A DNA stretch of 20,917 nt from Cystobasidiomycetes sp. EMM_F5 (taxonomy: Eukaryota). Below the pieces are notes generated by a model. It was not told the DNA's origin, searched no databases, and worked only from the letters and a program-made list of their open reading frames with translations. Position 1 is the first letter of the stretch. Each line of letters opens with the position of its first letter. Made by a program: the position numbers and the translations under genes. Location of the stretch: contig JBPGPT010000053.1 in NCBI GenBank assembly GCA_051047955.1, forward strand, positions 62,001 to 82,917, written 5' to 3'. Shown here in pieces: positions 29 to 19,703 of this stretch.

Positions 29-2401
29 TTGATAATCACGGCATATGCCGGAAGATTGACCCCCCATGCTAAAGTAGCGGTGCATACCAGGATATTAGTG
101 ACGTTACGCTCGAACAGACGTTCACTGAGATTTCTGTCAGATCGCAGCATTCCTGCGTGATGAATACTGCAAAACGGCTTATTGTAAGCTATGTAGTCCT
201 GGTCTGCAGAATCTCGTATTCACCCAATACCAGCGCTGACAAGGTCCTTCAGCTCGCGATTGCGACTCATAGCGATCTCACGCTTAAATGCTTCAAGAGA
301 GGGGTTGTCGCTAACGTCAAAGTACGAAGTTTCGCTCTCCTCAATTGCGCGTTCCCTCAGCATCTGAGCAGTCTTGACGGTATCCTTTCTCGCATGCACA
401 AATATCAAGACTTGGTGGCCTTCTTTGATGAGATCCAGCGTCTTATCAAATGTTGCTATGTCTAGATTGTCTCGGCTCTGCTGCGACCCCGGCTTTCCTT
501 TGGATGCTATAAAATGTTGCTCCAAAGGTACGGGCCGGAAGGAGCTGTCGAAGAAGAATAGCCCAACGTATGGATTCACTCGCAAGAAATCGGCAACGTC
601 GACAAAATTTGGCAGGGTGGCAGATAAGCCAACAATACGAATGAGAGACTGGGAAGACTCGACCTGTCGGAGTGTTCGAGCAATTATACTTTCCAAGACA
701 GCACCCCGATCTTCTGCCAGCAGATGCACCTCGTCCACTATCAGCAACTTCAACAGCTAAACGCAAATTTAGCATGATGGGAGGCAAGCTAGACCTAGTG
801 ATAGGGCCACATACAGATGCTAGTTCACCCTCGCCAGTTGTCTTCCTTGTAACAACATCCCACTTTTCAGGTGTGGTGACAATCATCTGGGTTTCGGAGA
901 TTTCCTTACGAGTGAGCTGCATATCACCCGTCAATTCGCGTACAGCAAGACCACACCAGGAGAACCTTTTTGACATTTTGACGACAATCTCGCTGGCGAG
1001 CGCCTTCATCGGCGCAACATAGACAACTTTGAAATTCTTGTTTCGCATTTTGCCGCTTTTTAGGTCGATATCGGCATACATACTCAAAGCTCGTAGTACC
1101 GTCAGGACCGCAACGTCTGTTTTGCCTGCACCTGTCGGAGCGCAGACCAGCATATTTTCGGAAGTCTCGTAGGCTGTTGGATAGACAATGGATTGCAGCC
1201 TGTTTAGTGTGTCATACGGCAGACTCTGTCGGACAAGAGGAGGTAGCTGTTTTGTCGCAAGTAAGGTAGCAGTATACGATGAAGGATGTTTCGCAAGTGT
1301 GGGAATAGTCACTTCGGAGTAATGCTAGAGTATAACCCAAGTCAGCCCGTGAACGGCTGCACGACGCAATTTTGCCAACTTCATGCTCGACCCTTGTGCT
1401 GCCGAGTGGAAGTAGCGCCTTTCCACCAGACATTGCCGAACCTGCCATTGCTGATTTTGTCGCGTATACGTGAGGGTACCTGACCTCATCGCCGACAATC
1501 GCACGGTTATTCGGGTTGACTAGAGGTCTATTGGCTGCTTCTTCCAAGTTTCTCAGGTGCATTTGTTCCAATTCATCGATACTCATACCAGGCCTCATGC
1601 CTGCCGGACATGCTATATTAGCTGAAGCAGACCGTTTCGCGCTGCTGATGCCCCCATACCATTAGTGGCATCTCTATGCTGGCGATTCCCCTTCCCACGC
1701 TGCTTTCCTAACCGTCGAGGCGTTTGTAACGAAGCATACGCTCCTTCAGCATCGCTGTCCACGGGCGCGTTCACGCCAGAACCACCGTCTTTACCGTTTT
1801 CTGCAATGTGCTCAACAGCCTGGTACGCGGTCGACGTATGTTTAGCTTCAATCCTTCGCCCTGCCAGGTGCTTGAGGAAGGCAAAAACTGACCCTGTTGG
1901 TATGCTGAACTTCATACTCATGTCTTATTCGCTCGCGTTTCGAAAGCAGGTCGGGGATAGAGTCTACGGCGTCGAAACCGAGAATGTCGAGGATATCGGA
2001 CGATATTTCATCGTCGGAACGGGTTGAAGCGGCCAATAACGTTGTCAAACGGTCGTAATTTTCAGTCGTTTGCGAGAGCCTGTATTTTGTGTTAGATCGC
2101 AATATATGAGACTTAATAACTGCACATACGCCTTCAGCCAGCTGAGAGCGTCCGAGTCATCAGAAGCCTTGCTGCGGCCATTCGTAAGATTAGCAGATTT
2201 AGGATGTTTCCGTTTAGCGTTCTGGACAAGCTGTGACAGTTCTTGGGCTACATCGTCGTCTGTGAGTGTCCGTACAGCAGTCTTGCCTGCGAGTAGCTGT
2301 TGGACTTCTGCCAGCGCATTGTCGTCATTTACGGCACTGGATGTGCTGGCCAGGATAGACTGCAGGTGAGCGAGGAATGGAGACTGCGATGGATTAGCCA
2401 T
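29..2401 (-). CDS. SLH1: Ski2-like DExH helicase Slh1/Rqt2/ASCC3, 5' part (continues beyond window start). Exons 2401-2130, 2079-1893, 1819-1660, 1600-1380, 1324-815, 756-224, 166-29
   Basis: Motifs CAPTGAGKT (I), VYVAPMKAL (Ia), [21 protein letters not shown] (II), GLSATLPN (III), [18 protein letters not shown] (V). [15 protein letters not shown] and [16 protein letters not shown] fit Slh1/ASCC3 better than Brr2. All introns are GT-AG, 50-73 nt and frame-consistent. Confidence 0.92.
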
Positions 2402-3618: not shown

Positions 3619-5505
3619 TTATGAAACAGCATAGACATCCAACGTCTTGATGTCGTGAACCATCTTCTGGCGAAGGTACGGCATATTGCGCTGATGAAAG
3701 TCAAATCTCCCATCTTTGCGTGAGAGGCACTCTATAAATTGCGAAGTAAAGACTCCACAGTCGAAGCCATTCTCCTGTTGCGGCGTCTTTGGGTCGAAAT
3801 AGTCTTCCCAGTCCGAGAGGTCGATAGCAGTCTTCTTCTTGTCGAGATGCTCGGCCATCACGTACTCGCGCAACGTGTTGCACACTGTCGGACTGGACCG
3901 GCCCATGGAATCGTAAAATTCAAAACGCTTCTTAGCGACGTTGATGGCGGCACAGACCCAGTGTAGCTGCCCAAGGTTGACGGGCATAATGATGATGTCT
4001 TTCTTGAAAAGGTCAAACTGAGATGATGACACGTCAGAAGATGCCGGTGTTGTGTTGTAATATGCGGATTTCTACCTTTTTTGACCACCTTCGCACCGCA
4101 GAATAGCCTTGGGTCGACATTTTCTCAAAGAAGAACGAACTATAAAAATGTATATCAAGCAGATTGTTATCGGCCTCTGTCGCTTTGCCCTTATCACGGC
4201 GTTCCTTTGCCTTTTGACTTCTCGCCAGTACGAGGTTGCCATAGAAATTGATGACTTCGTCATTTAGCCACTGTGTAGGCAGTAGTCGCGCCAGATCTCT
4301 TGAAGTCACTTCGGCGCCTGGCAGAGTGGAAATGATTCCCGATTGCTTCAGGGTCGATGTAACGATTTCTTGCATTTCGAGAGTCAGTCGATCAGGCCAC
4401 TATCATCGTTACAAGATGACAAAATCAGCTGCAGTCTTGAGATAGGTAAAAGAGCATAGCTCGCCTTTCGCTTCGGCCTCAACAGTTCTTCCAGACGTTC
4501 AGACTTTTGTTCCTCCTTTATCCGTAGACGCTCGAAGCTGAGAGCGGGGGGAGCTTTCGGGCGCGGCGTCGCTGCCGCAGCTTGTGCGTTGGACAATACT
4601 TGCTCAAACGTGCTTTCATGCGTGCGAAAGGGTTTCGGCTGTGGATTACAAGTAGTTAACTTAATATTACAGTGTGTACCCAAACGACGGTCCTCACGGT
4701 AGACTTCTGCTTGAATATGTTGATGCCGCGAAGTAGCCGTTGCCTCGTGTCATTATGGAGCGTCTTGTAGGCTTCATCTACCATTGGGTTGTACGAGAGC
4801 ATACTCTTGTCGCCTGTGAACCGGCTTTAGTACTTTTACTGGGCTGAAGAGAGTGCCATCCGTACGCAGAGCTGGGGGTTCCTGGGCGTAGAATGCGTCG
4901 ACACTGGGCCTCCCTCTGACAGACTTGCTCTGCCGCGTGGGCGTATCGTACGCTTCATACTCCATCGGGGGTGTAATTACAGCCAGGCTGCTCGACGATG
5001 CCGGCGACAGAAGACTGGCCCCGGAGCTCCCGCTGCTTGTCGATGTTCCGGTATGTAACGGCACTCGTACGTGCGTGCTCTTGACAGCCTGAAACCGCAT
5101 CTCCCTGCTCGCTTTCGCCTTTGCCGTCGCCTGATTTTTCGAGGATATCAGCCCATCGCAGCACCTCGACTGCAATATCGCCCTCACTTCTGCCTTGTAC
5201 ATGGGCGTTCTCCTGACTGATCCTTGGACAAAAGTGCCGCCATTCGTACTGATATCCCCCGCTGCCATTGCTGGAATGGCTGGCTCCTCGTCGACGTCGA
5301 TAATATCGTGTCGCCCTCTCCTGCTCCCCCTGCCCTTGCTCGGAGTCGCCAGCCCCCATCTGCGCAGTATCGACGTCAAGACGGACACGGGCTCATCGTC
5401 CGACGACGACGAGGCAGAGGTCCGCTGTCGTTTGGCGGCGGGCTGCTGAAACGACATTGATCTATCGTCGCCAGCTCGTTTGGACGTCAAAGGCGCTGGC
5501 AGCAT
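3619..5505 (-). CDS. ULP1: Ulp1-family SUMO protease (peptidase C48), ~531 aa. Exons 5505-5188, 5130-4866, 4813-4698, 4638-4465, 4399-4076, 4017-3619
   Basis: WLNDEVINFY, SSFF, VRRW, catalytic His (LHW), Asp (FYDS) and Cys (PQQENGFDCGVF). Long Ser/Arg-rich N-terminus with NLS-like PAAKRQR. The model needs one GC-AG intron (4464-4400). Confidence 0.9.
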
Positions 5506-6465: not shown

Positions 6466-7277
6466 ATGCCTCTAGCAAGATTCCTTCGTCTCGGTACGCG
6501 CAACGCTAGGTCTATACACACTTGCGATGTCACTGTATTGCGAATCTTGTGGCGACATAGACTCACCAAGAGATGGTTATTGGAGCTCTCCGTGTCGCTA
6601 CCCCAGGGCGGACGCGTCCAGACCAAGAAATACTTCACTGGTACTGAAATCAGACATACCTTCGGCGAGATCCCTTGTGGACGTCATAGCATGCGTCGCC
6701 TCTCAGTGGAATTGGACAACAAGAGCGGTGAGATCATACATATTGGACCACAAGAGGTGAGATGGCGGCATCCATCTAGATGAGCCGGATATGTTAGCTG
6801 ATCATCCAGCATCGCACACAGCAAGAGATGGCGTCAGATGCTACCGTTGTCCAATCTGCGGCACCTGTGCCGGCACAGAATCGCACTACACAGAAGCAGA
6901 AGACAGGTTCGTCTGCCAATCTTACGAAACCGTTCTCCCCAGGTCTCCCCCGGGATATCCGAACGCTGGAGGCTATGATGCAGCCAGGACCGTCTACCGG
7001 ATCGAATCAAGTTTATCGTCCACAGCATCCTCGATCTGTTCCACTTGTGAGGCCGAGAGATCCCTCAGCCGCAAGAAGCACCCGAAATGCAGATCCAAGA
7101 GCGCAAGAAACGTTGCCACAAGCTGTGAGACAGCCAAAGCCGCCTGCTGGACTGGTGCCAACGAACAGAGTGAAAAAGGTCACCACACCACTATATCTAC
7201 GTCCAGCACCAGAAGCGGTTGACCCTGCTGAAACAAGGGCGATCCATAATCAGTTTGCAGCTTGGAGCGGTTTTTAG
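6466..7277 (+). CDS. Orphan family member A, ~248 aa. Exons 6466-6756, 6822-7277
   Basis: Intron gag|GTGAGA...GCTGAT...acacAG| (65 nt, phase 0) joins ORFs 6448-6783 and 6828-7277 in frame. Exon 1 aligns by eye with exon 1 of members C and D; exon 2 is P/R/Q-rich. Confidence 0.7.
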
Positions 7278-7775
7278 AAACAGCTAAGCGTCGCCCATTC
7301 CTCGAGTGTTCCTGCCCTTGTTTACCGTGTTGAAAGAAAGCAGCGTCTGCCGACATGATAATGCGTTGGTGTACTCTTGTTACGCAATCGTATCGTACTG
7401 TCAATCAAAGTTCTCTCCATCTTCTAGACATTCATCTAATCTCAGCCGTTTTATGCTCCAGCACGAAAGAACACCGTCACTATCAGCGGCTTCATGAGAC
7501 AAGGACCACGCAGCACCCCTTTTACATCACGGGCGCTTCGAGCCGCTCACGAGGAGGTAAACAGTCACACCAGACAGGACCTAGCCACCGGCGATGCTAT
7601 CTGGTCAGGTGTACCACTTGGCGGGCGTCGTCCGATGACATTGTCACTATCGTGGCTGTTTATAAGGTCTTACATCACAGCCATGCTGGGCGGCACCCTC
7701 CTCTCTGATTTGCATCTCTCCACTGTTCCAAAATTAATCCTCAAGCCCCTACCCTCTCCACGCCAAAACGTATCA

Positions 7776-8356
7776 ATGTCTTCCACACGTGAGCGTACAT
7801 TAATAGCCCAAATCGCTCCTAGCTAGCATCAAGGTCGTAAGCATCGACAAACGAGACCCTGCTGGCGACAGAGTACCCATGGCTGCATTCCTTCTGCTTC
7901 GTTTGAAAAGCTAAACGTCGAGGTCCGAATGTTGGGTAAACGCATCACCTACATTGTTTCCGAGGCGGGTACTGTACTTCCGCTCCATAGAAGTGTGCAA
8001 CAGCAGCTGATTACGTAGCATGCTTGTGTGCACAATATCAGCCCGTAAGAAATCTTCAAACACGCTTCTACCCGAATCAACAGCAAGTCAAGCCTACGAA
8101 CATTACGTATCGGGGCGTTACAACTGTTAATCAGAGTGCGTACTTTGGACTAGCGCATTCGAGTGAGTATGGTTCACCTTCCCATGCATCTGCCTCAGGC
8201 ACGTCAAAGTCTCGCTCGACATCATCATCATCCTCACAATCTTCTTCGTACATGTCGGGATCATCAACAAACTCGACTGTGCAGAAGAAGGTTTGGGGTA
8301 CCACAGAAGAGCGAAACAATATTGCGCAGCAATTTGGTGACTTCAAGTGGACGTAA
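7776..8356 (+). CDS. Orphan family member B, truncated or highly divergent (possible pseudogene); 5' structure unresolved
   Basis: Frame at ~7872-7967 reads STHGCIPSASFEKLNVEVRMLGKRITYIVSEA, resembling the end of A exon 1 (FGEIPCGRHSMRRLSVELDNKSGEIIHIGPQE). An intron (7969-8018 GT-AG or 7965-8041 GC-AG) joins it in frame to ORF 8024-8356. The end KKV..EERNNIAQQFGDF resembles A's KKV..ETRAIHNQFAAW. Confidence 0.45.
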
Positions 8357-8630
8357 GACAGTCGAAGGGCATGTGCATTCTACCGCTGCTTTGCGTACAT
8401 TCAATTTAAACTGACTCATCCCGCTCCCGCTTGTGCGATGTTCACGATATACTTGCGTCACGTACTGCCCATGGATTCCACATATAGCTGAGATCGCTCT
8501 TCTCGTGATGTCAGATGTAAAGACTCGGAGCTGAGATCACATATCAATCGTACGTCTGCACCCGTCGACCATATCAAGTGCCCCTGGCTTTAGTGACCAC
8601 AGCGGCCGATAGCCTGAGAATTTGTTAAAG

Positions 8631-8659
8631 CTGTACAAGCGGCGATGCCGCCGGGCATC
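8631..8659 (+). promoter_or_regulatory. Conserved upstream motif of orphan C (paralogous to 10241-10268)
   Basis: ctgtacaagcggcgatgccgccgggcatc vs ctgta-aagtggctatgaccccgggcatc, 24/29 identical, 153 and 195 bp upstream of the ATGs. Confidence 0.55.
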
Positions 8660-8783
8660 ACGCCTGCCTAGAATTGGGACTGACTCCGCTCACTGTCACC
8701 TTTTCGACTACTAGTACTCACTGCATTCGCTCTTCGACTGCACGCTTGCGCACACACGCTTACATTCGTCTATCTCCCCAGAA

Positions 8784-9729
8784 ATGGACTTCAGCTCGCT
8801 GAGCATGTCCAGTCGCGGTGACCGCAGGACAATCAGCTACGCGCGCAGCATAGAACTGCTTCGCATGACTAAGCGCAGGAGGCTCGTTGGCGGATACTAC
8901 CTTGGCTTCAAGGTCCAGTTGGCAAACGGATCATCAACCCAGGTCGACCAAGGAATGAAAGAAGAGGAGCTACTGGCTATCTTCGGGTCCGAGACTATCC
9001 CGTACGTACATGCGACACAAAGCAATGTGCGTGTTCAGCTGGACCGCCATGGCGTGGTCAAGCGCCTTTTGCCCCCAGCAGTAGGTTCAACGTGTGGGCC
9101 TACTAGTTCTTGAAATGACAGTAACCACACGTACAGGCTAGAACCCCATCACCTCCAGCACCAGCTGTGCCATCGCAGCCCGGAATGGGTAAATCGCCCT
9201 TTACCAGACCTTCAGCGTACAAATCAAATCCTGGCGATCCGACTCGAAACACTGTGGAAGGCGCCTCAGGAACACCAGGACCTCAGCATCATCGCGCTTC
9301 ACCATCTGCAGTGGTGGCCTCGTCGCAGCTTCAAGCAATGCTAACTGACAATCGCAGCACGGCTGGACGTGATTTCTCCTATCCAAACCGTACAAAGCCG
9401 CCGACTGGGGAACCCCGCATGTCATCCAAGCCGGTGGGGGGCATATTCAGTTCTGAAGGCCGATGAGGTTGAAGCTGAAACCGCGAATTCGACATGCAGA
9501 GCTCCAAGAATTCGCAGACTTCCCTGAACAAAACTTTCCAGGCAGGTCAGTCACACGAGCAAATTAATCGTCCGCACCAACAAGTACGAGCACTATGACT
9601 GAGCACGATCTGACATCTCGTGTGCCAGGCGAACCTCCAAAAAAGCTGGGCAACCAGATGGCGGAACTAGTGCCACCGGGGCAACGCTTCTACCAGGTGT
9701 TTCCACCGTCCAATGTACACCACCAATGA
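8784..9729 (+). CDS. Orphan family member C, ~246 aa. Exons 8784-9080, 9137-9433, 9500-9545, 9629-9729
   Basis: Three frame-consistent GT-AG introns (56, 66, 83 nt). Clear paralogy with D: RRL...YY.G..V.L..G..TQ.DQ.M...EL.A.FG.E...NV.V.L.R.G.VKR, FSYP.RT.P, SS..SQTSLN..FQ and QR(F/Y)Y...PP. Confidence 0.75.
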
Positions 9730-9924
9730 ACGCTCAAGGGACGAGAAGCCAATGTAGGAAGACATCGCAACCCCGGATTTGCAGCGGGGCATTGCGTTTG
9801 GGTCCAATTTCCGAGACAGAGCATCTGGCTGGCCAGTTGCTGTTCCTTTAGCAAGTTTTGTCCTCTGTGTTTTCATCGCTAGCTTCAAGCGTTCTCCGCT
9901 TCTTTTCGTTGCCTGCCTTGTCGT

Positions 9925-9967
9925 GGTCGGATATAGCATTATATATAGCATTATGCTATATCCGACC
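9925..9967. repeat. Perfect 15-bp inverted repeat with an overlapping 12-bp tandem duplication
   Basis: ggtcggatatagcat (9925-9939) / atgctatatccgacc (9953-9967), 13-nt loop; atatagcattat occurs twice (9931-9954). Confidence 0.9.
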
Positions 9968-10240
9968 TTGAACACAGACCAACTTGAGCTCCAAAGCTCC
10001 CAACTGCGACCAGGACATTGAATAATTGCTGCGACGCCCAAGGGTAACGACACCTTGGATTCGGTGGACCATGGCATGCGATCCTCACGAGCTCCAGCAA
10101 CGGGCTTGAACTTTCTCTTAGCTGACGCCTTTGTGCTGCGACACATGCAACAAGTTCCAGCGCGCTGACAAAAGCGCAATTCGGTGACCAGTACACCAGA
10201 AAGGACTAACTAAGGCTGCCGTGTTCCGGGAAACAATGCT

Positions 10241-10268
10241 CTGTAAAGTGGCTATGACCCCGGGCATC
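10241..10268 (+). promoter_or_regulatory. Conserved upstream motif of orphan D (paralogous to 8631-8659)
   Basis: 24/29 identity with the C-upstream copy; shared core ccgggcatc. Confidence 0.55.
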
Positions 10269-10435
10269 GCCCTTGTCTCGCTCGACCTACAAGCGACTTC
10301 GTTCGGATTTCGCGTTTCGACTGCCTTCTACTAACACTCCCACAACGCAAATTCCGACTACCATCTTCCACAAGCACAAAACACGCGAGTCCTCGTCGAA
10401 ACGTTACAAGCATTGCCTTCGAACGTTTAGGCAAG

Positions 10436-11375
10436 ATGTTCAAAAGCCGGGGGACAAAGTCGACGGCCTCCGCAAGTAGAGTCGTGCTGGTTCGGTGTCT
10501 CTATCGCAGGCTCTTCCGTGATTACTATGCGGGCATCAATGTCCATCTGTCCGGCGAAATGACCCAGATTGATCAAGCAATGTCGAGGGATGAGCTAATT
10601 GCCGTTTTCGGAAGAGAGGTGCTGCTTCCCGAATCCACCGAACCGCTCTTAAATCTCGCACGAGCCAATGTGACAGTTGAGCTCGGTCGTCGAGGCGGAG
10701 TCAAGCGTGTTCTGATACCCAACGTAAGTCCGCGTTACGTGATCTCCTCGGCGTTGTTGACACGATGCACTCGTTTAGACACCAGCCCGGTCTTCTCCTG
10801 CTCCATCCATCTACAATCAGATCATTTCAGGATCATCAACTCAGCTAGCACCACCACCGCCACTCGCCAGATTTCCAGTATCAGACAGCAATAATGCTGG
10901 CGCGGGCAGCCGACGATCTATTGAGGATATATATGGAACTGTTGCCGGAACTGTTACTGCACGACGACCGGTGGCGACGGGCGAGTCGCAGTCTACAACA
11001 GCCCGCACTGACGCTGGCAATCCCGATACGCCTCAACAGAATTTCTCTTATCCAGGCCGTACGAGGCCTGATGTACCCCGCAAACGATCTCAACCAGTGA
11101 GTGCACCTTCGGCTGTCAGGTACAGTAGTAGCTGACAAGGCAACATTGACATGCAGAGCTCTCAAAGTTCGCAGACTTCCTTAAACAGACGCTTTCAACT
11201 AAGTAAGTCGCAAGGCCAGAACAGTCGCAATCAGCCTCCAGCTACAGCCACCACTGCAAGTCGTAGTGTAGTAACTCTCACTACGCAGGGTGGATATCCA
11301 CAACAGCCATACGTCAACCCGGCGACGCAACGATACTACAGTACGAACCCGCCAGAAGGTTTCTTCCAGCGATGA
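10436..11375 (+). CDS. Orphan family member D, ~250-274 aa. Exons 10436-10723, 10779-11096, 11157-11375 (possible further intron from 11203)
   Basis: GTAAGT (10724) and GTGAGT (11097) donors sit at the same positions and phase as in C. The acceptor context gacatgcag|agctc is identical to C. Confidence 0.75.
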
Positions 11376-11676
11376 CGGCACGGCCGAACGCGCCTGATGG
11401 ACTCCTTGCGCATTGAGGTGAGCATATCTTAGTATGGCCGTCACTCCTAGCCCCGCTAGCAACGGAGACAGCATCTCAAGCGGGGGCGCAGTTCCTTTTA
11501 TCGACTGTTATTGTATTGTTCTTTACGTCTGCCTGTTAGTCCTCGCACACGAGACTCATTCGCTCTTGTTCGTTGAGTGCCTTGTCGTATTCGGCTATGC
11601 TTTCCGTGAATCCAGACCAACTTGACCTGCGATAAGAACTGCTCAAACTGCTGCAACGGGGTCTTGACTGCCCAAT

Positions 11677-12360
11677 ATGGGCTTCAAGCACCGCGTCTAC
11701 CTCGGGGGCAGCAAGATATATGCCTGCGCCGTGTGCAAGACGCACCTGGCCACTATCGAGACCATGATGAGCCGGGTGGGTCATATTCAGAGTATGGCAT
11801 CGATAAGTAGTCTTATCAGTCATAATCACAGCGCTTCAATGGCCAGCACGGCCAGGCATTCCTGTTTGAATCCGTGTCCAATGTCGTCGAGGCTGAAGCT
11901 GAAGACCGGCAAATGACGACGGGACTGCATCGCGTGCGAGATATCCAGTGCGCAAAGTGCGGAACGACAATGGGATGGAAGTATGTGAGTCCAAAGGCTG
12001 TCGGATTTATTCCTCTTTTTGCAAGACATGCCGCTGATTGTGATGCTATCTTATTCACAACAGGAGAAGGCATACGAACCATCTCAAAAATACAAGGAAG
12101 GGAAAGCTATCCTAGAGAAAGCGCTACTCGTCGAATGCACTCCGCCCGCGTTCGCCCTCCCGTCTTCATCTGGCATACAAGAGGATGGCTCGTCTGGCCA
12201 GGTCAGCCAGGTCATCAACGTCAACCTTGCCACTCCTCTACGAGGGCAAGCGAGTACACAGAGTATGGGAATAGCAAGGAGCGCAGACAGCGGTACGGCA
12301 GTCTCCGTAAGCCCATATACCGGCAGAGCAGTCAGTTCAGGAAGTGAAGAGTCAGAGTAG
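11677..12360 (+). CDS. MOH1: Yippee family zinc-binding protein (Moh1/YPEL), ~182 aa. Exons 11677-11775, 11832-11984, 12064-12360
   Basis: MGFKHRVYL, CAVC and CAKC zinc knuckles, FNGQHGQAFLF, RQMTTGLHRVRDI, GWKY|EKAYEPSQKYKEGK. Confidence 0.92.
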
Positions 12361-12801: not shown

Positions 12802-13987
12802 TTACGCAACGACGCTCACGGCCGGCATGGAGGGATCGGAAGACAGCTTGAGTGTCTCTGCGTAATGCAGCTCGCCTGAGTTCTCGTACTGCGAAAACAG
12901 CATCAGATGATTATCCGCCCGTTTTCCGCACAACGTCTCGACTCACATTGTACATATCGAGAGCAACTTCGCAGCTCTCCCTGACCACCCGCGGACCCTT
13001 AGTACTGAACTCTTTCAGTGTCGCAAGGACGTCCTCTGTAGCGATGCTACCCAACGCTTCCGCCGCTTCATGCCTGACCATCTCATCTTCCGCCTCGTTC
13101 TCCAGCACTTTGACAAGTGAAGGCACTGATGCAGGATGGCTCATCTGACCAAAGACGTAGGCAATCTCGTGTCGGAATAGAGCACTTCCATCTGAAAAGC
13201 CGTCCGCTAGTGCTAGGACTGATTCGTCGGTAGACATGTTTCGTAGTGCAAACATTGCCCGATACCGCGCAAACAGGCTTTGGTTTGCATCGAGGAGCTG
13301 TTCTCGTAGCGCGGTCACTGACATGGCCTTATCTGAGGAAGTGTTGTGCATTGAGACGATGGACGGAGCGGGATCGATGCTATCATAGGGTGAGCGTTGT
13401 TGCTGTGCAGGTTGCGATGACGAAGACGGAGATGATGAAGATGCTTGATGATCGAAGTGGATTTTAGCCAATGCAATCTCGCACGTCTCCTTTACTGAGA
13501 CATCTTCGCCTGCTCTGTTCAAGTATTCTTCGAGTATTGGTATGGAAGCGGGCGATGAGATGGCGCCCATAGCTTCTGCTGCCTGTATTCGAATAGGGAT
13601 GAGGTCATAGTTCCAGTAAAAGGTGTACAACAGCTGACCTCATGTCTGACCATCGGATGTTGAAGTTGGTCTCTCAGCACACCTTCGAGGTAGGGTAAGG
13701 CGTGGACATCGTTGATCTGGCCAAGGACATACGCCAGCTCGTGCCCCAGCAGAGCTGAAGAGTCGGAGAAGCCTGTCAAATAAGACAAAATCAGGCCACG
13801 GAGCATATCGTTATGTCAGAATGAACCCACCTTTGCCGATAATATCAATCGCGGCGCGAGTCTTCAGGTTCCTCAGGGTAAAGAGCGCGCGGAAACGTTT
13901 CGCCAGGGCTACGTTGCCATTTGTATTGAGCAGCGTCGCTTCGAGGTCTGCGTATTGCTCGGATGTCGCAGTCAATTGGCCCGGCAT
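12802..13987 (-). CDS. LIA1: Deoxyhypusine hydroxylase, ~337 aa. Exons 13987-13831, 13772-13639, 13582-12947, 12888-12802
   Basis: HEAT-like repeats with four iron-binding HE motifs ([31 protein letters not shown]), RFRALFTL / [21 protein letters not shown]. Confidence 0.95.
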
Positions 13988-14198: not shown

Positions 14199-15113
14199 AT
14201 GCCTAGATCAAGTATGGCGCATTTCTCACAGACGGATGCTCGGAGACCCCGACTGAGACGACGTTTCAAATCAAACAGAGCGGCAGACGGTGGTTGCACT
14301 GACAAAGACTGAAAAGAAGACAAAGGAAGCCAAAGGGAATCTCTTGGACAAGGTGCGAAATGATACCGTGTGTCTGCGCGGTCTCAGCTGAGAATTTGGT
14401 CGGATTCCCAGGTCAAGCAGCATGCAGACGAATTCAAGTACATCTGGGTGTTTCACATCGAAAACATGCGGACAAAGTGTCTGCAGGAAGTGAGAGATCA
14501 CTGGAAGGGTTCAAAGTAGGTGTTGCAGGTCGGGCCGTCAACATTCCCATAGCTAATTTCTAATAAATCAGAATCATGCTAGGACGTAACGCCGTCATGC
14601 GGAAAGCGTTAGGAGCAACCGTGGAGGAAGAACACAAGCCAGGGTGCTCGGTCATTGCAAATCAGCTGGAAGGAGACGTCGGACTACTCTTCACTTCTGA
14701 GACACCGCAAGTCGTCCTCGAATGGTTCGAGTCGTACAAGGTGCCAGACTACGCCAGAGCTGGCAATCTAGCGACAGAAGATTTCGTCCTGCCAGAAGGT
14801 GCAGTGCAAATCGACGGGGAGAATGCGCCTCATTCGCTTGAGCCACAACTAAGAAAGCTGGGCTTGCCTACCCGGCTACTAAAGGGCATCCCTACACTTT
14901 CAGGCGAGCACAGAGTGTGCAAAGAAGGGCAAAAACTGTCTCCAGACCAAGCACATCTCCTCAAGTTGTTTCACCGGCAAATGGCGACAGTGTGTCGTTT
15001 TTTACCGGATGTGATGCTCGTCCCGCTAATGCTGTTATCTCGTTCAGTTCCAGATAGTGCCAAAGACTTGCGTGGATCTCGAGGAGGGCAAGGTTGTGCA
15101 CGGAGATGCGTAG
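14199..15113 (+). CDS. MRT4: Ribosome assembly factor Mrt4 (uL10/P0 paralog), ~224 aa. Exons 14199-14211, 14279-14352, 14412-14515, 14572-14989, 15048-15113
   Basis: MPRSKR..V.LTKTEKK, IWVFHIENMR, GRNAVMRKALG, GDVGLLFT, DYARAG, HSLEPQLRKLGLPT, VCKEGQKL. All four introns are canonical and frame-consistent. Confidence 0.95.
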
Positions 15114-17483: not shown

Positions 17484-19703
17484 GTTAATCCGCTCCGGAG
17501 AGGATCCCTCACCGATCCGTTGCTTCATGCTCATGCCAGAAACACTCCTTCACACCATGCGGCAGCTGCAGCCGCTCAGGGCCTTTCCGCAAGCAACTCA
17601 TCTCAAGGCTTCAGCAGTACTGCTCCAGCGTCGGATGTCTATTCCATCACAGGCGCTGTTCGGCCGACATCGGCAATGTCGATGGGAAGCTCTCCTGCCC
17701 AACAGCGGTCGACACTATTTCCACCTCAATACGATCAGCAACAGACTCGACACAGTAGCGTTACTGATGAAACGTCTACTCTGAATGATACAGGAACTGC
17801 AGCAAATTCGTCACCTGTTCTAGGCCAGTCCACAAGGAAACTTACGGTGAAAACTCCATTTCCCCCACAACAATCCCTGACCTTTCAGCCGCGTGCTCCG
17901 AGTCCTCTACATACCACTCAGCACTATCCTCCATCAAATGCAGCACCATACCCTGGCGGCCAAAACAGCCTAAAGCGCAAATCGCTAGCGGATTCGGGCG
18001 GGCAGGGTCCTGAGCAGCTCAAGCGGCATGCTCAGGTAACATCAGCGTCAATTGGACTTGGACAACCTTCCACCAGTACCGGACCGGGGCACGACAATGC
18101 GACTGCGGCGGCATTGGCAGCGCAGCAAGAACGGCGAAGAGCCAGTCTCGCATTGTCAGAGAGTGCTGCTGCCATGGAGAGGTACGAGGCAAGCGCTGCG
18201 GCTGCTGGATCATCTGTGTATGAGTATCCACGACGATCAAGTGGACCCCTCGGCAAAGGCCAATCTCCGCTGACGCAATCAGCATACTCCTTTCCTCCGC
18301 TCCCAACGTCCGCCGGAGGAGGCATACAACCTGTGGAAGATGATCCACGGGATAACCCTTCAGCGACACTCGCCGAATACACATTTGGACGCAACACAAT
18401 TCCCAACTCGGTACGGCCACCGATGCATGCCGATCCTCACGACCACCCTCAAGCTATGTACGCAACTAATCCGCGAATTGCATTACCTTACGAGCAAGAT
18501 CCTTCTGATGCACGTATGAGCCACACTATGCCTTCAGATTCGGCTCAGACTGCTCGAACGATATTCGGTGCATCCGTTCCAGCATACAGCTCGGAAGGCG
18601 AACGGGTGGGACTCACTTCATCAACGCATGGCGTTGATCGGACCAAGTTGCATCCAGCGCCAAAGGAGACTCCCTACTCTCGATCACCTGAACTGAAGGT
18701 ATCGCACAAGATTGCTGAAAGAAAACGGAGAAAGGAGATGAAGGAGCTGTTTGACGATCTCAGAGATTCCATACCGTCTGAGCGAGGTCTCAAGAGCTCA
18801 AAGTGGGAGATTCTGAGCAAGGCTATCGATTATGTCGCCGCCTTGACGGAAGATAGAAATCAGCTTGCACAAAACATTGCAGATCTGAACAGGCATATCG
18901 CTACTCTTGAGCATATTATACACAACAATCAACAGGCGTCGAGTTCTCTATCTCGGCCGGCATCACACGATCGTGCAGGAACAAGCGTTTCTCCTCGCAA
19001 TTACCATATGTCTGTCGCGCCCTCTGACAGATCGCAAATGGGTACACCAAGTATCCACCATGCTTCGATGTCGCCTTTTGCAGCTCCCTCTGTTGTAAAT
19101 GGGCATCGCTCAGACTTTTCTCCGCGCAGCACACAACATCCGTCGCCCATGTCCCAACACGTTCAACCAACTCAAAGTGACCAGTACGGGCAGCCTCAAG
19201 CATACAGCAACATAGCACCCGAGTTCCAACAAACACATTCACCCAGCCACCATCATCCCCGACCTCCACCTCTGTATCATAGTGGGTCCGCACCCGCCGC
19301 CTTGCCTCCTGACGGCTACCCACCACATCCCGGCCTGCATCAAAGCCATTCGGGAGGCTCAACCGCAAGCGCTCCTCCACACGTACATAGTCCGCACTTT
19401 ATGTATAGTCGTCCCGCCTCGATGCACTCCCATCGAAGCAACCCTTCCACACACTCTGTACAATCCCTGCGATCCCACCACTCTCATACCCAGTCCTTCC
19501 ACGACGGGTCGCAGCCATCAGAGAGCCCACTCATACATAGTCAAGCGATGCCGGCATCTGGCCCTATTCACCTCGACCAGAATGTGCAGATGCAGACGAT
19601 GGAGGACTACAGTCCTTACGCGCAACACATTGCACCTCCTCCGCAACAGCACCCTCACCAGATGCAGATGAATCCGGATCAGACTATCATGCCATATCAA
19701 TAA
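17484..19703 (+). CDS. bHLH transcription factor of the fungal Esc1/DevR type; main exon (upstream exon(s) unresolved)
   Basis: PYSRSPELKVSHKIAERKRRKEMKELFDDLRDSIPSERGLKSSKWEILSKAIDYV followed by a heptad zipper-like stretch, with long S/P/H/Q-rich disordered flanks. ACTAAC and ttgcAG acceptor at 17483. Confidence 0.88.
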   Translation, partial: VNPLRRGSLTDPLLHAHARNTPSHHAAAAAAQGLSASNSSQGFSSTAPASDVYSITGAVRPTSAMSMGSSPAQQRSTLFPPQYDQQQTRHSSVTDETSTLNDTGTAANSSPVLGQSTRKLTVKTPFPPQQSLTFQPRAPSPLHTTQHYPPSNAAPYPGGQNSLKRKSLADSGGQGPEQLKRHAQVTSASIGLGQPSTSTGPGHDNATAAALAAQQERRRASLALSESAAAMERYEASAAAAGSSVYEYPRRSSGPLGKGQSPLTQSAYSFPPLPTSAGGGIQPVEDDPRDNPSATLAEYTFGRNTIPNSVRPPMHADPHDHPQAMYATNPRIALPYEQDPSDARMSHTMPSDSAQTARTIFGASVPAYSSEGERVGLTSSTHGVDRTKLHPAPKETPYSRSPELKVSHKIAERKRRKEMKELFDDLRDSIPSERGLKSSKWEILSKAIDYVAALTEDRNQLAQNIADLNRHIATLEHIIHNNQQASSSLSRPASHDRAGTSVSPRNYHMSVAPSDRSQMGTPSIHHASMSPFAAPSVVNGHRSDFSPRSTQHPSPMSQHVQPTQSDQYGQPQAYSNIAPEFQQTHSPSHHHPRPPPLYHSGSAPAALPPDGYPPHPGLHQSHSGGSTASAPPHVHSPHFMYSRPASMHSHRSNPSTHSVQSLRSHHSHTQSFHDGSQPSESPLIHSQAMPASGPIHLDQNVQMQTMEDYSPYAQHIAPPPQQHPHQMQMNPDQTIMPYQ

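Follow-up and report, generated by a model that had tools for sequence, protein, structure and literature searches.

Do the same-strand genes that lie between a ULP1-type peptidase gene and a Yippee gene in the fungus Cystobasidiomycetes sp. EMM_F5 form a gene family, and if so, of what kind? The question was raised by a first-pass annotation of 20,917 nucleotides (nt) of contig JBPGPT010000053.1 (assembly GCA_051047955.1). This whole stretch, fungal DNA with short GT..AG introns, is called the window, and all positions refer to it. The annotation had described a tandem array of an unrecognised family, consisting of genes A, C and D and a fragment B, whose first exons encode a novel domain of about 90 amino acids (aa). 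The analysis gives a graded answer. As judged from sequence comparison, C and D are a pair of tandem paralogs, both of them real protein-coding genes, A is probably a third and more distant member, and the three form an orphan family. It is likely that these statements hold jointly.

Exons, introns and flanks of genes C and D

The open reading frame (ORF) sets named in the annotation were all found between the ULP1 and Yippee genes, starting at 6466 (A), 8784 (C) and 10436 (D). Their first exons have 97, 99 and 96 codons, as had been stated, and every peptide string that had been quoted from the encoded "heads" is present in the checked translations. Each first exon is predicted to end in phase 0 at a GT..AG interval of 53 nt (A), 56 nt (C) or 55 nt (D), sizes comparable to that of the Yippee gene intron (56 nt). 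The gene models were built from the sequence and the C-D comparison only. Those of C and D consist of the following parts.

8784..9080, plus strand: gene C exon 1, 99-codon basic head, isoelectric point (pI) 10.2
9137..9433, plus strand: gene C exon 2, tail with SPAP and FSYPxRT[KR]P motifs
9500..9545, plus strand: gene C exon 3, 46 nt with SSxxSQTSLN motif, followed by donor GTCAGT
9629..9729, plus strand: gene C exon 4 and stop, QRFY...PP C-terminal motif
10436..10723, plus strand: gene D exon 1, 96-codon basic head, pI 10.3
10779..11096, plus strand: gene D exon 2, tail
11157..11375, plus strand: gene D exon 3 onward to the stop; the first 46 nt (to 11202) are followed by a perfect GTAAGT donor (11203)

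The C and D heads are identical at 40 of 95 residues (42%; BLASTP expect value, E, 3e-19). All gaps in their alignment are whole codons and both frames are open. Over 90 aligned codons the heads differ at 46 first, 33 second and 50 third positions; the proportions of nonsynonymous and synonymous differences (pN and pS) are 0.43 and 0.62, and the divergence is saturated, with a synonymous divergence (dS) above 1.2. DNA identity between the two genes ranges from 58 to 63% overall. The tails show 33% identity over 107 aa (tblastn) and 63% nucleotide identity over 226 nt, with conservation limited to short islands. The shared motifs are SPAP, FSYPxRT[KR]P, PRxxSxPSSxxSQTSLN and QR[FY]Y..PP. Within the third, the conserved string PR[MK][SR]S[KQ]P resembles what we take to be a basophilic-kinase or 14-3-3-type RxxSxP site. 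A codon-usage frame test, trained on nine known exons from the window's other genes, placed C exons 1 and 2 and D exon 1 within the range of the known exons.

Three predicted intron positions are common to C and D. Intron 1 follows the head in phase 0 at an identical alignment column, and intron 2 lies after ..KP / ..QP. The third exon is 46 nt long in both genes and is followed by GTCAGT in C and GTAAGT in D, so that the D donor at 11203 is in the same place as C intron 3. The position of the last D acceptor is uncertain; the homologous C-terminus is preserved with an in-frame intron of any of three lengths (39, 45 or 69 nt) and also if the intron is retained. The predicted proteins have 252 (A), 246 (C) and 251-274 (D) aa. 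The annotation had also stated that similarity stops exactly at the first intron. This describes A against C and D well, but not C against D, where the tails are homologous and two further intron positions are shared.

The composition that had been described for all three genes was borne out. The heads are basic (pI 10.2-11.1), and the tails (pI 10.6-11.3) are of low complexity, containing 12-16% P, 16-25% S+T and 12-15% Q+N. The first acidic residue is at position 21 in A, 29 in D and 2 in C; the N-termini of A and D, not that of C, have what we would regard as the look of a mitochondrial presequence.

The likeness of C and D extends into their flanks, where the following elements were found.

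8651..8741, plus strand: gene C upstream motifs, CCGGGCATCAC at 8651 and TTCGACTRC at 8703 and 8733
10260..10324, plus strand: gene D upstream motifs, CCGGGCATCGC at 10260 and TTCGACTGC at 10316
9897..9990, plus strand: gene C 3' flank elements, a 38-nt core (9897-9934) and a 25-nt element (9966-9990)
11561..11628, plus strand: gene D 3' flank elements, a 38-nt core (11561-11598, 79% identical to C) and a 25-nt element (11604-11628, 84% identical to C)

Exact copies of CCGGGCATCRC stand at two sites only, 8651 and 10260, one ahead of each gene. With one mismatch allowed, TTCGACTRC gives 17 matches, and the three exact ones (8703, 8733 and 10316) all lie upstream of C or D. On the other side, the 38-nt core and the 25-nt element sit about 170-260 nt beyond both stops. 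The repeat period from C to D is about 1.6 kb.

C and D descend from an old tandem duplication of a ~1.6-kb unit that comprised the promoter motifs, the four exons and the elements conserved in the 3' flank. The predicted product of each is a basic head of ~95 aa followed by a basic tail (150-180 aa) with many P, S, T and Q residues. The duplication is old, as the saturated dS indicates, yet exon structure and flank motifs were kept, which argues for a maintained function and not for recent de novo birth.

Two observations weigh against this picture. First, between the tails of C and D the three codon positions have changed to nearly the same extent (70, 67 and 77 of 144), and much of the tail may therefore be nearly unconstrained. 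Second, the NCBI models of C and D are unlike the four-exon models conserved between the paralogs (8784-9466, 10436-11100). Two NCBI hypothetical proteins of Cystobasidiomycetes sp. EMM_F5, KAL7004264.1 and KAL7004265.1, are letter-identical to parts of C and D, and neither carries a family or function name. KAL7004264.1 (181 aa) differs from the C model in starting at Met28 and reading through intron 2. KAL7004265.1 differs from the D model in joining a 70-aa piece of the D head to an out-of-frame stretch. On comparison of the paralogs it is the deposited C and D models that look wrong, and A appears to be unannotated. The EMM_F5 genome was annotated by Funannotate 'predict', and RNA data are not mentioned in its description (PMC12697161).

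Gene A and the interval between A and C

Membership of A is the less secure part of the family. The predicted gene has two exons.

6466..6756, plus strand: gene A exon 1, 97-codon basic head, pI 11.1
6757..6809, plus strand: gene A putative intron 1, 53 nt, GTGAGA...CAG, phase 0, in the same alignment column as the C and D intron 1
6810..7277, plus strand: gene A exon 2, 155-codon tail rich in P, S, Q and R, with stop

A profile hidden Markov model (HMM) built from C and D ranked the A ORF as the first non-self match among the 551 six-frame ORFs of the window (E 0.056, 8.7 bits, colinear), the next having an E of 2.8. The A score was reached by one of 5000 composition-matched shuffles. Smith-Waterman alignment of the A and C heads gave a score of 54, which none of 2000 shuffles reached, and is colinear from A 21-84 to C 22-87. 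Comparison of A with C/D by hhalign gave a probability of 62% and a P of 7.5e-5 over 65 colinear columns. In a three-way alignment the heads of A, C and D end flush at the putative phase-0 intron, in the same column. Exon 2 of A is coding-like in its codon usage (-5.87, margin 0.18). A is probably a member of the C/D family, either much older or faster-diverged than the other two. It would keep the head and the phase-0 intron, with an unrelated-looking tail and different flanks.

A number of results point the other way. Plain BLASTP links the A head to neither C (E 0.037, non-colinear) nor D (E 6.1), and the Smith-Waterman score of the A and D heads (34) was reached by 70 of 2000 shuffles. The A tail resembles the C and D tails at chance level only (1127 of 2000 shuffles score as high with C and 1987 with D), and the conserved tail and flank motifs of C and D were not found at A. 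Codon usage of A exon 1 prefers its frame by a margin of just 0.034, the antisense strand scoring equally well. The one entry of the protein collection that contains this exon is a raw 105-aa ORF, unspliced, and none of the NCBI-sourced proteins that the searches returned includes it. The predicted secondary structures of the A and C heads also differ, as described below.

These results can be read as meaning that only C and D form a family, and that A is an unrelated or non-functional pair of ORFs whose likeness is due to chance and similar composition. The HMM E of only 0.056 among 551 ORFs gives this reading some weight, but it is unlikely. Chance and composition would have to produce the hhalign P and scores that one of 5000 and none of 2000 shuffles reach, together with ~65 colinear residues and a flush end at a phase-0 intron in all three genes. 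Furthermore, A agrees with C and D in strand, in total length and in the layout of a head followed by a basic tail.

Probable membership of A is preferred here. The similarity of A to C and D on which the first-pass annotation depended is only moderate, with the hhalign result and the shuffles against C for it, and BLASTP, the HMM E and the comparison with D against it. The "array" then consists of one certain pair, C and D, and one probable distant member. Local tandem expansion is supported for the C/D pair by heads, DNA and flanks.

Fragment B does not belong to it. The interval in which it had been placed is as follows.

7278..8783: A-C interval, free of domain copies, with an S-rich open frame on the plus strand (7991-8356)

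A three-sequence HMM run on 204 read-through tiles of the whole window, in which stops were read as X, found A, C and D only. The best non-member tile (-0.5 bits) is located outside the A-C interval. Smith-Waterman comparison of the open frame 7440-7967 with the A, C and D heads was at chance (1252, 1072 and 596 of 2000 shuffles), and no ORF of the interval on either strand matched Pfam. By eye, the B interval seemed to hold an A-like tail ending (…QQFGDFKW and …NQFAAW); this was rejected, as the whole-tail score was reached by 1212 of 2000 shuffles.

In codon usage the S-rich frame at 7991-8356 (plus strand, 121 codons) looks coding, with the largest margin in favour of its frame (0.33) of any region tested. 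Pfam gives no match for it, and it resembles the tails of A, C and D only at chance level. The frame upstream of it, 7440-8018, is open save for one TAG at 7824-7826.

The 3' flanks, relatives elsewhere and the fold of the head

The conserved C/D 3' flank may be a 3' untranslated region or termination element, or an unannotated last exon. Its elements (79% and 84%) are better conserved than the C/D coding sequence (58-63%). The flank of C only also contains an 18-bp inverted repeat (9925-9967, 94% complementary, 7-nt loop) between the core and the 25-nt element. This repeat is built on the end of the 38-nt core and makes up most of the 26-nt length difference from D.

If the flank held a last exon, C and D could be membrane-anchored: the exon would add a two-helix hydrophobic hairpin, and head and tail would lie on the membrane surface. 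Open frames with two strongly hydrophobic segments do lie beyond both stops (C 9785-10021, D 11434-11625), with Kyte-Doolittle 19-residue maxima of 2.4, and of the three pairs that are in register this one has the top score (71; the others 49 and 29). By our own count about half of the base differences in the 38-nt core are synonymous in that frame, and by our own reading there are frame-compatible GT..AG joins, from a C donor at 9697 or 9715 to an acceptor at 9784 and from 11359 to 11491 in D. The C frame has no ATG and so would be translatable only as an exon. However, T-rich untranslated sequence also translates as hydrophobic peptide, and the candidate splice sites are non-homologous in position and phase between C and D. 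Codon usage of the frame is poor (-6.11), the antisense scoring better, and the present stops come after the conserved QR[FY]Y..PP motif. The 25-nt element, moreover, is not read in the same frame in the two genes, owing to the 26-nt length difference, which includes the palindromic insert in C. Conservation of this element would then be at the DNA or RNA level, and that of the core could be too. A membrane anchor is thus doubtful. Comparison of the frame in the A 3' flank with the hydrophobic frames of C and D gave chance-level scores (954 and 231 of 3000 shuffles).

The annotation had recognised no family for the heads, and this stood up to searches of Pfam, PDB sequences, the ESM Atlas and 1.84 billion representative proteins. 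Heads and tails gave nothing at the gathering threshold in Pfam-A (E <= 10 or E <= 1). Their sole match, AAA_lid_5, was spurious, with 13.9 bits against a cut-off of 22.7. PDB sequence searches gave best E values of 0.12 and 0.61, and the best ESM Atlas score was 0.76 (C head), with no usable match for A.

The HMMER profile search of the 1.84 billion representatives returned five proteins at E <= 0.001, and four were products of the locus itself. The fifth, a 3189-aa protein (E 4.7e-7), was rejected; it consists of tandem units spaced 51 aa whose weak per-unit matches sum up. Its units match the D head with BLASTP E values of 0.025-0.27 each and do not match the C head.

Metagenomes were scanned with the C/D profile, giving 148 pattern matches, none of which was confirmed. 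Word-index searches confirmed none of 220 candidates for the D head and none of 71 for the A head; a close search with A gave three candidates and only its own 105-aa ORF. Six metagenome Yippee loci contained no head-like ORF (best E 1.4 among 814 ORFs), no ULP1 and no Lia1. The closest of these, L001 (82% aa identity in Yippee), has only 381 nt of upstream sequence, without similarity to the D flank. The Yippee homologue at L001:262-540 lacks the first intron that is present in the window's Yippee gene.

Paralogs beyond the window were sought through protein libraries only. The searches show a family without a detectable relative outside this genome, a statement weakened by the libraries' being uncontrolled for other Cystobasidiomycetes proteomes. 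Isolate EMM_F5 has no sister taxon among the 27 genomes of its class that were compared and belongs to a presumed family without any genome (PMC12697161). With no sequenced close relative, orphan status is expected for many genes of this genome. "Novel domain", the term of the first-pass annotation, is therefore an overstatement for what is so far an orphan sequence in such a genome. As far as these libraries reach, the family of A, C and D counts as taxonomically restricted (orphan) and not as a demonstrably new, widespread domain.

Structure prediction gave low-confidence models of the head. The AlphaFold2 model of the C head, with D as the only other alignment row, has a predicted local distance difference test (pLDDT) score of 46.5 and a predicted beta-alpha-beta-beta-alpha-beta-beta order. 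The A head, modelled alone, has a pLDDT of 66.4 and a predicted template modelling score of 0.54 and appears all-beta, with seven strands. The two models disagree in secondary structure, neither of them being reliable. Fold searches were run on the A model, the C model being too poor to search. Foldseek against the PDB gave no match at E <= 0.001 (best E 0.44), and in VIA-align, run over 48,161 chains, the highest Z was 5.8, where background is given as 7-8. The head was also checked for an internal two-fold repeat, which was rejected, as all nine half-against-half comparisons were at chance; 189 of 3000 shuffles scored as high as the best of them, that of the A N-half with the C-half of C.

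It is conceivable, but quite unlikely, that the A, C and D heads represent a new small fold of an unsampled cystobasidiomycete branch, kept by selection since the old duplication, with C and D perhaps tethered to a membrane by a hairpin exon and the tail serving as linker.

That the A, C and D ORFs are decaying duplicates or spurious predictions, with no functional gene among them, would agree with the lack of homologues elsewhere, the low AlphaFold confidence and the nearly equal variability of tail codon positions, but it is very improbable given that at ~60% nucleotide identity the C and D frames remain open over all four exons with whole-codon gaps, that three intron positions with intact GT..AG are shared, that second codon positions of the heads have changed least, that codon usage is like that of known exons and that flank motifs are conserved.

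Neighbouring genes, proposed function and comparison with known systems

The genes on either side of the locus and elsewhere in the window are as follows.

446-1153, minus strand: DEAD/DEAH helicase fragment
3619-4375, minus strand: Peptidase_C48 (ULP1-type) gene, Pfam E 2.5e-28, on one flank of the A/C/D locus
11832-11984, plus strand: exon of the Yippee gene on the other flank, matching Yippee-Mis18 with E 3.8e-4, under the Pfam cut-off for a single exon
12911-13806, minus strand: HEAT_PBS protein, presumably deoxyhypusine-hydroxylase-like
14576-15000, plus strand: ORF
17676-19703, plus strand: 675-aa bHLH protein

Rfam and tRNA scans of the window gave no match.

A possible function may be proposed for the family. 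The head would be a small folded interaction module, the tail would be disordered and bear short motifs for docking or phosphorylation, and the positive charge of both would fit binding of nucleic acid or another polyanion. The proposal is tentative and held with low confidence, and that it derives from composition counts against it.

The value of the locus is mainly for annotation. The structure of four exons that emerges on comparing C with D has evolutionary support. It adds one more lineage-restricted family in a yeast branch with a single genome and bears on no long-standing open question. It would gain interest if the head were conserved in the genomes of relatives, or if a new fold or a membrane anchor proved to be true.

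Known domains of similar size offer limited comparison. The first-pass annotation had thought of OB or SH3-like barrels, which share with the heads a size of ~90 aa and a net positive charge; no sequence or fold match rose above background, and the models of the head neither favour nor oppose a beta-rich fold of this kind. RRM-like domains (beta-alpha-beta-beta-alpha-beta) are alike in size (~90 aa) and positive charge, and the element order agrees only in the predicted C model of pLDDT 46, the A model being all-beta. Pfam lists no RRM model for the heads at E <= 10.

A further parallel is with the orphan gene families of fungi as a class. Like these, A, C and D are short genes of narrow lineage, with tandem duplication, fast divergence and much low-complexity sequence. 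The likeness is to a class and not to a homologous family, and the locus differs from it in that the C/D duplication is old, with exon structure and flanks kept.

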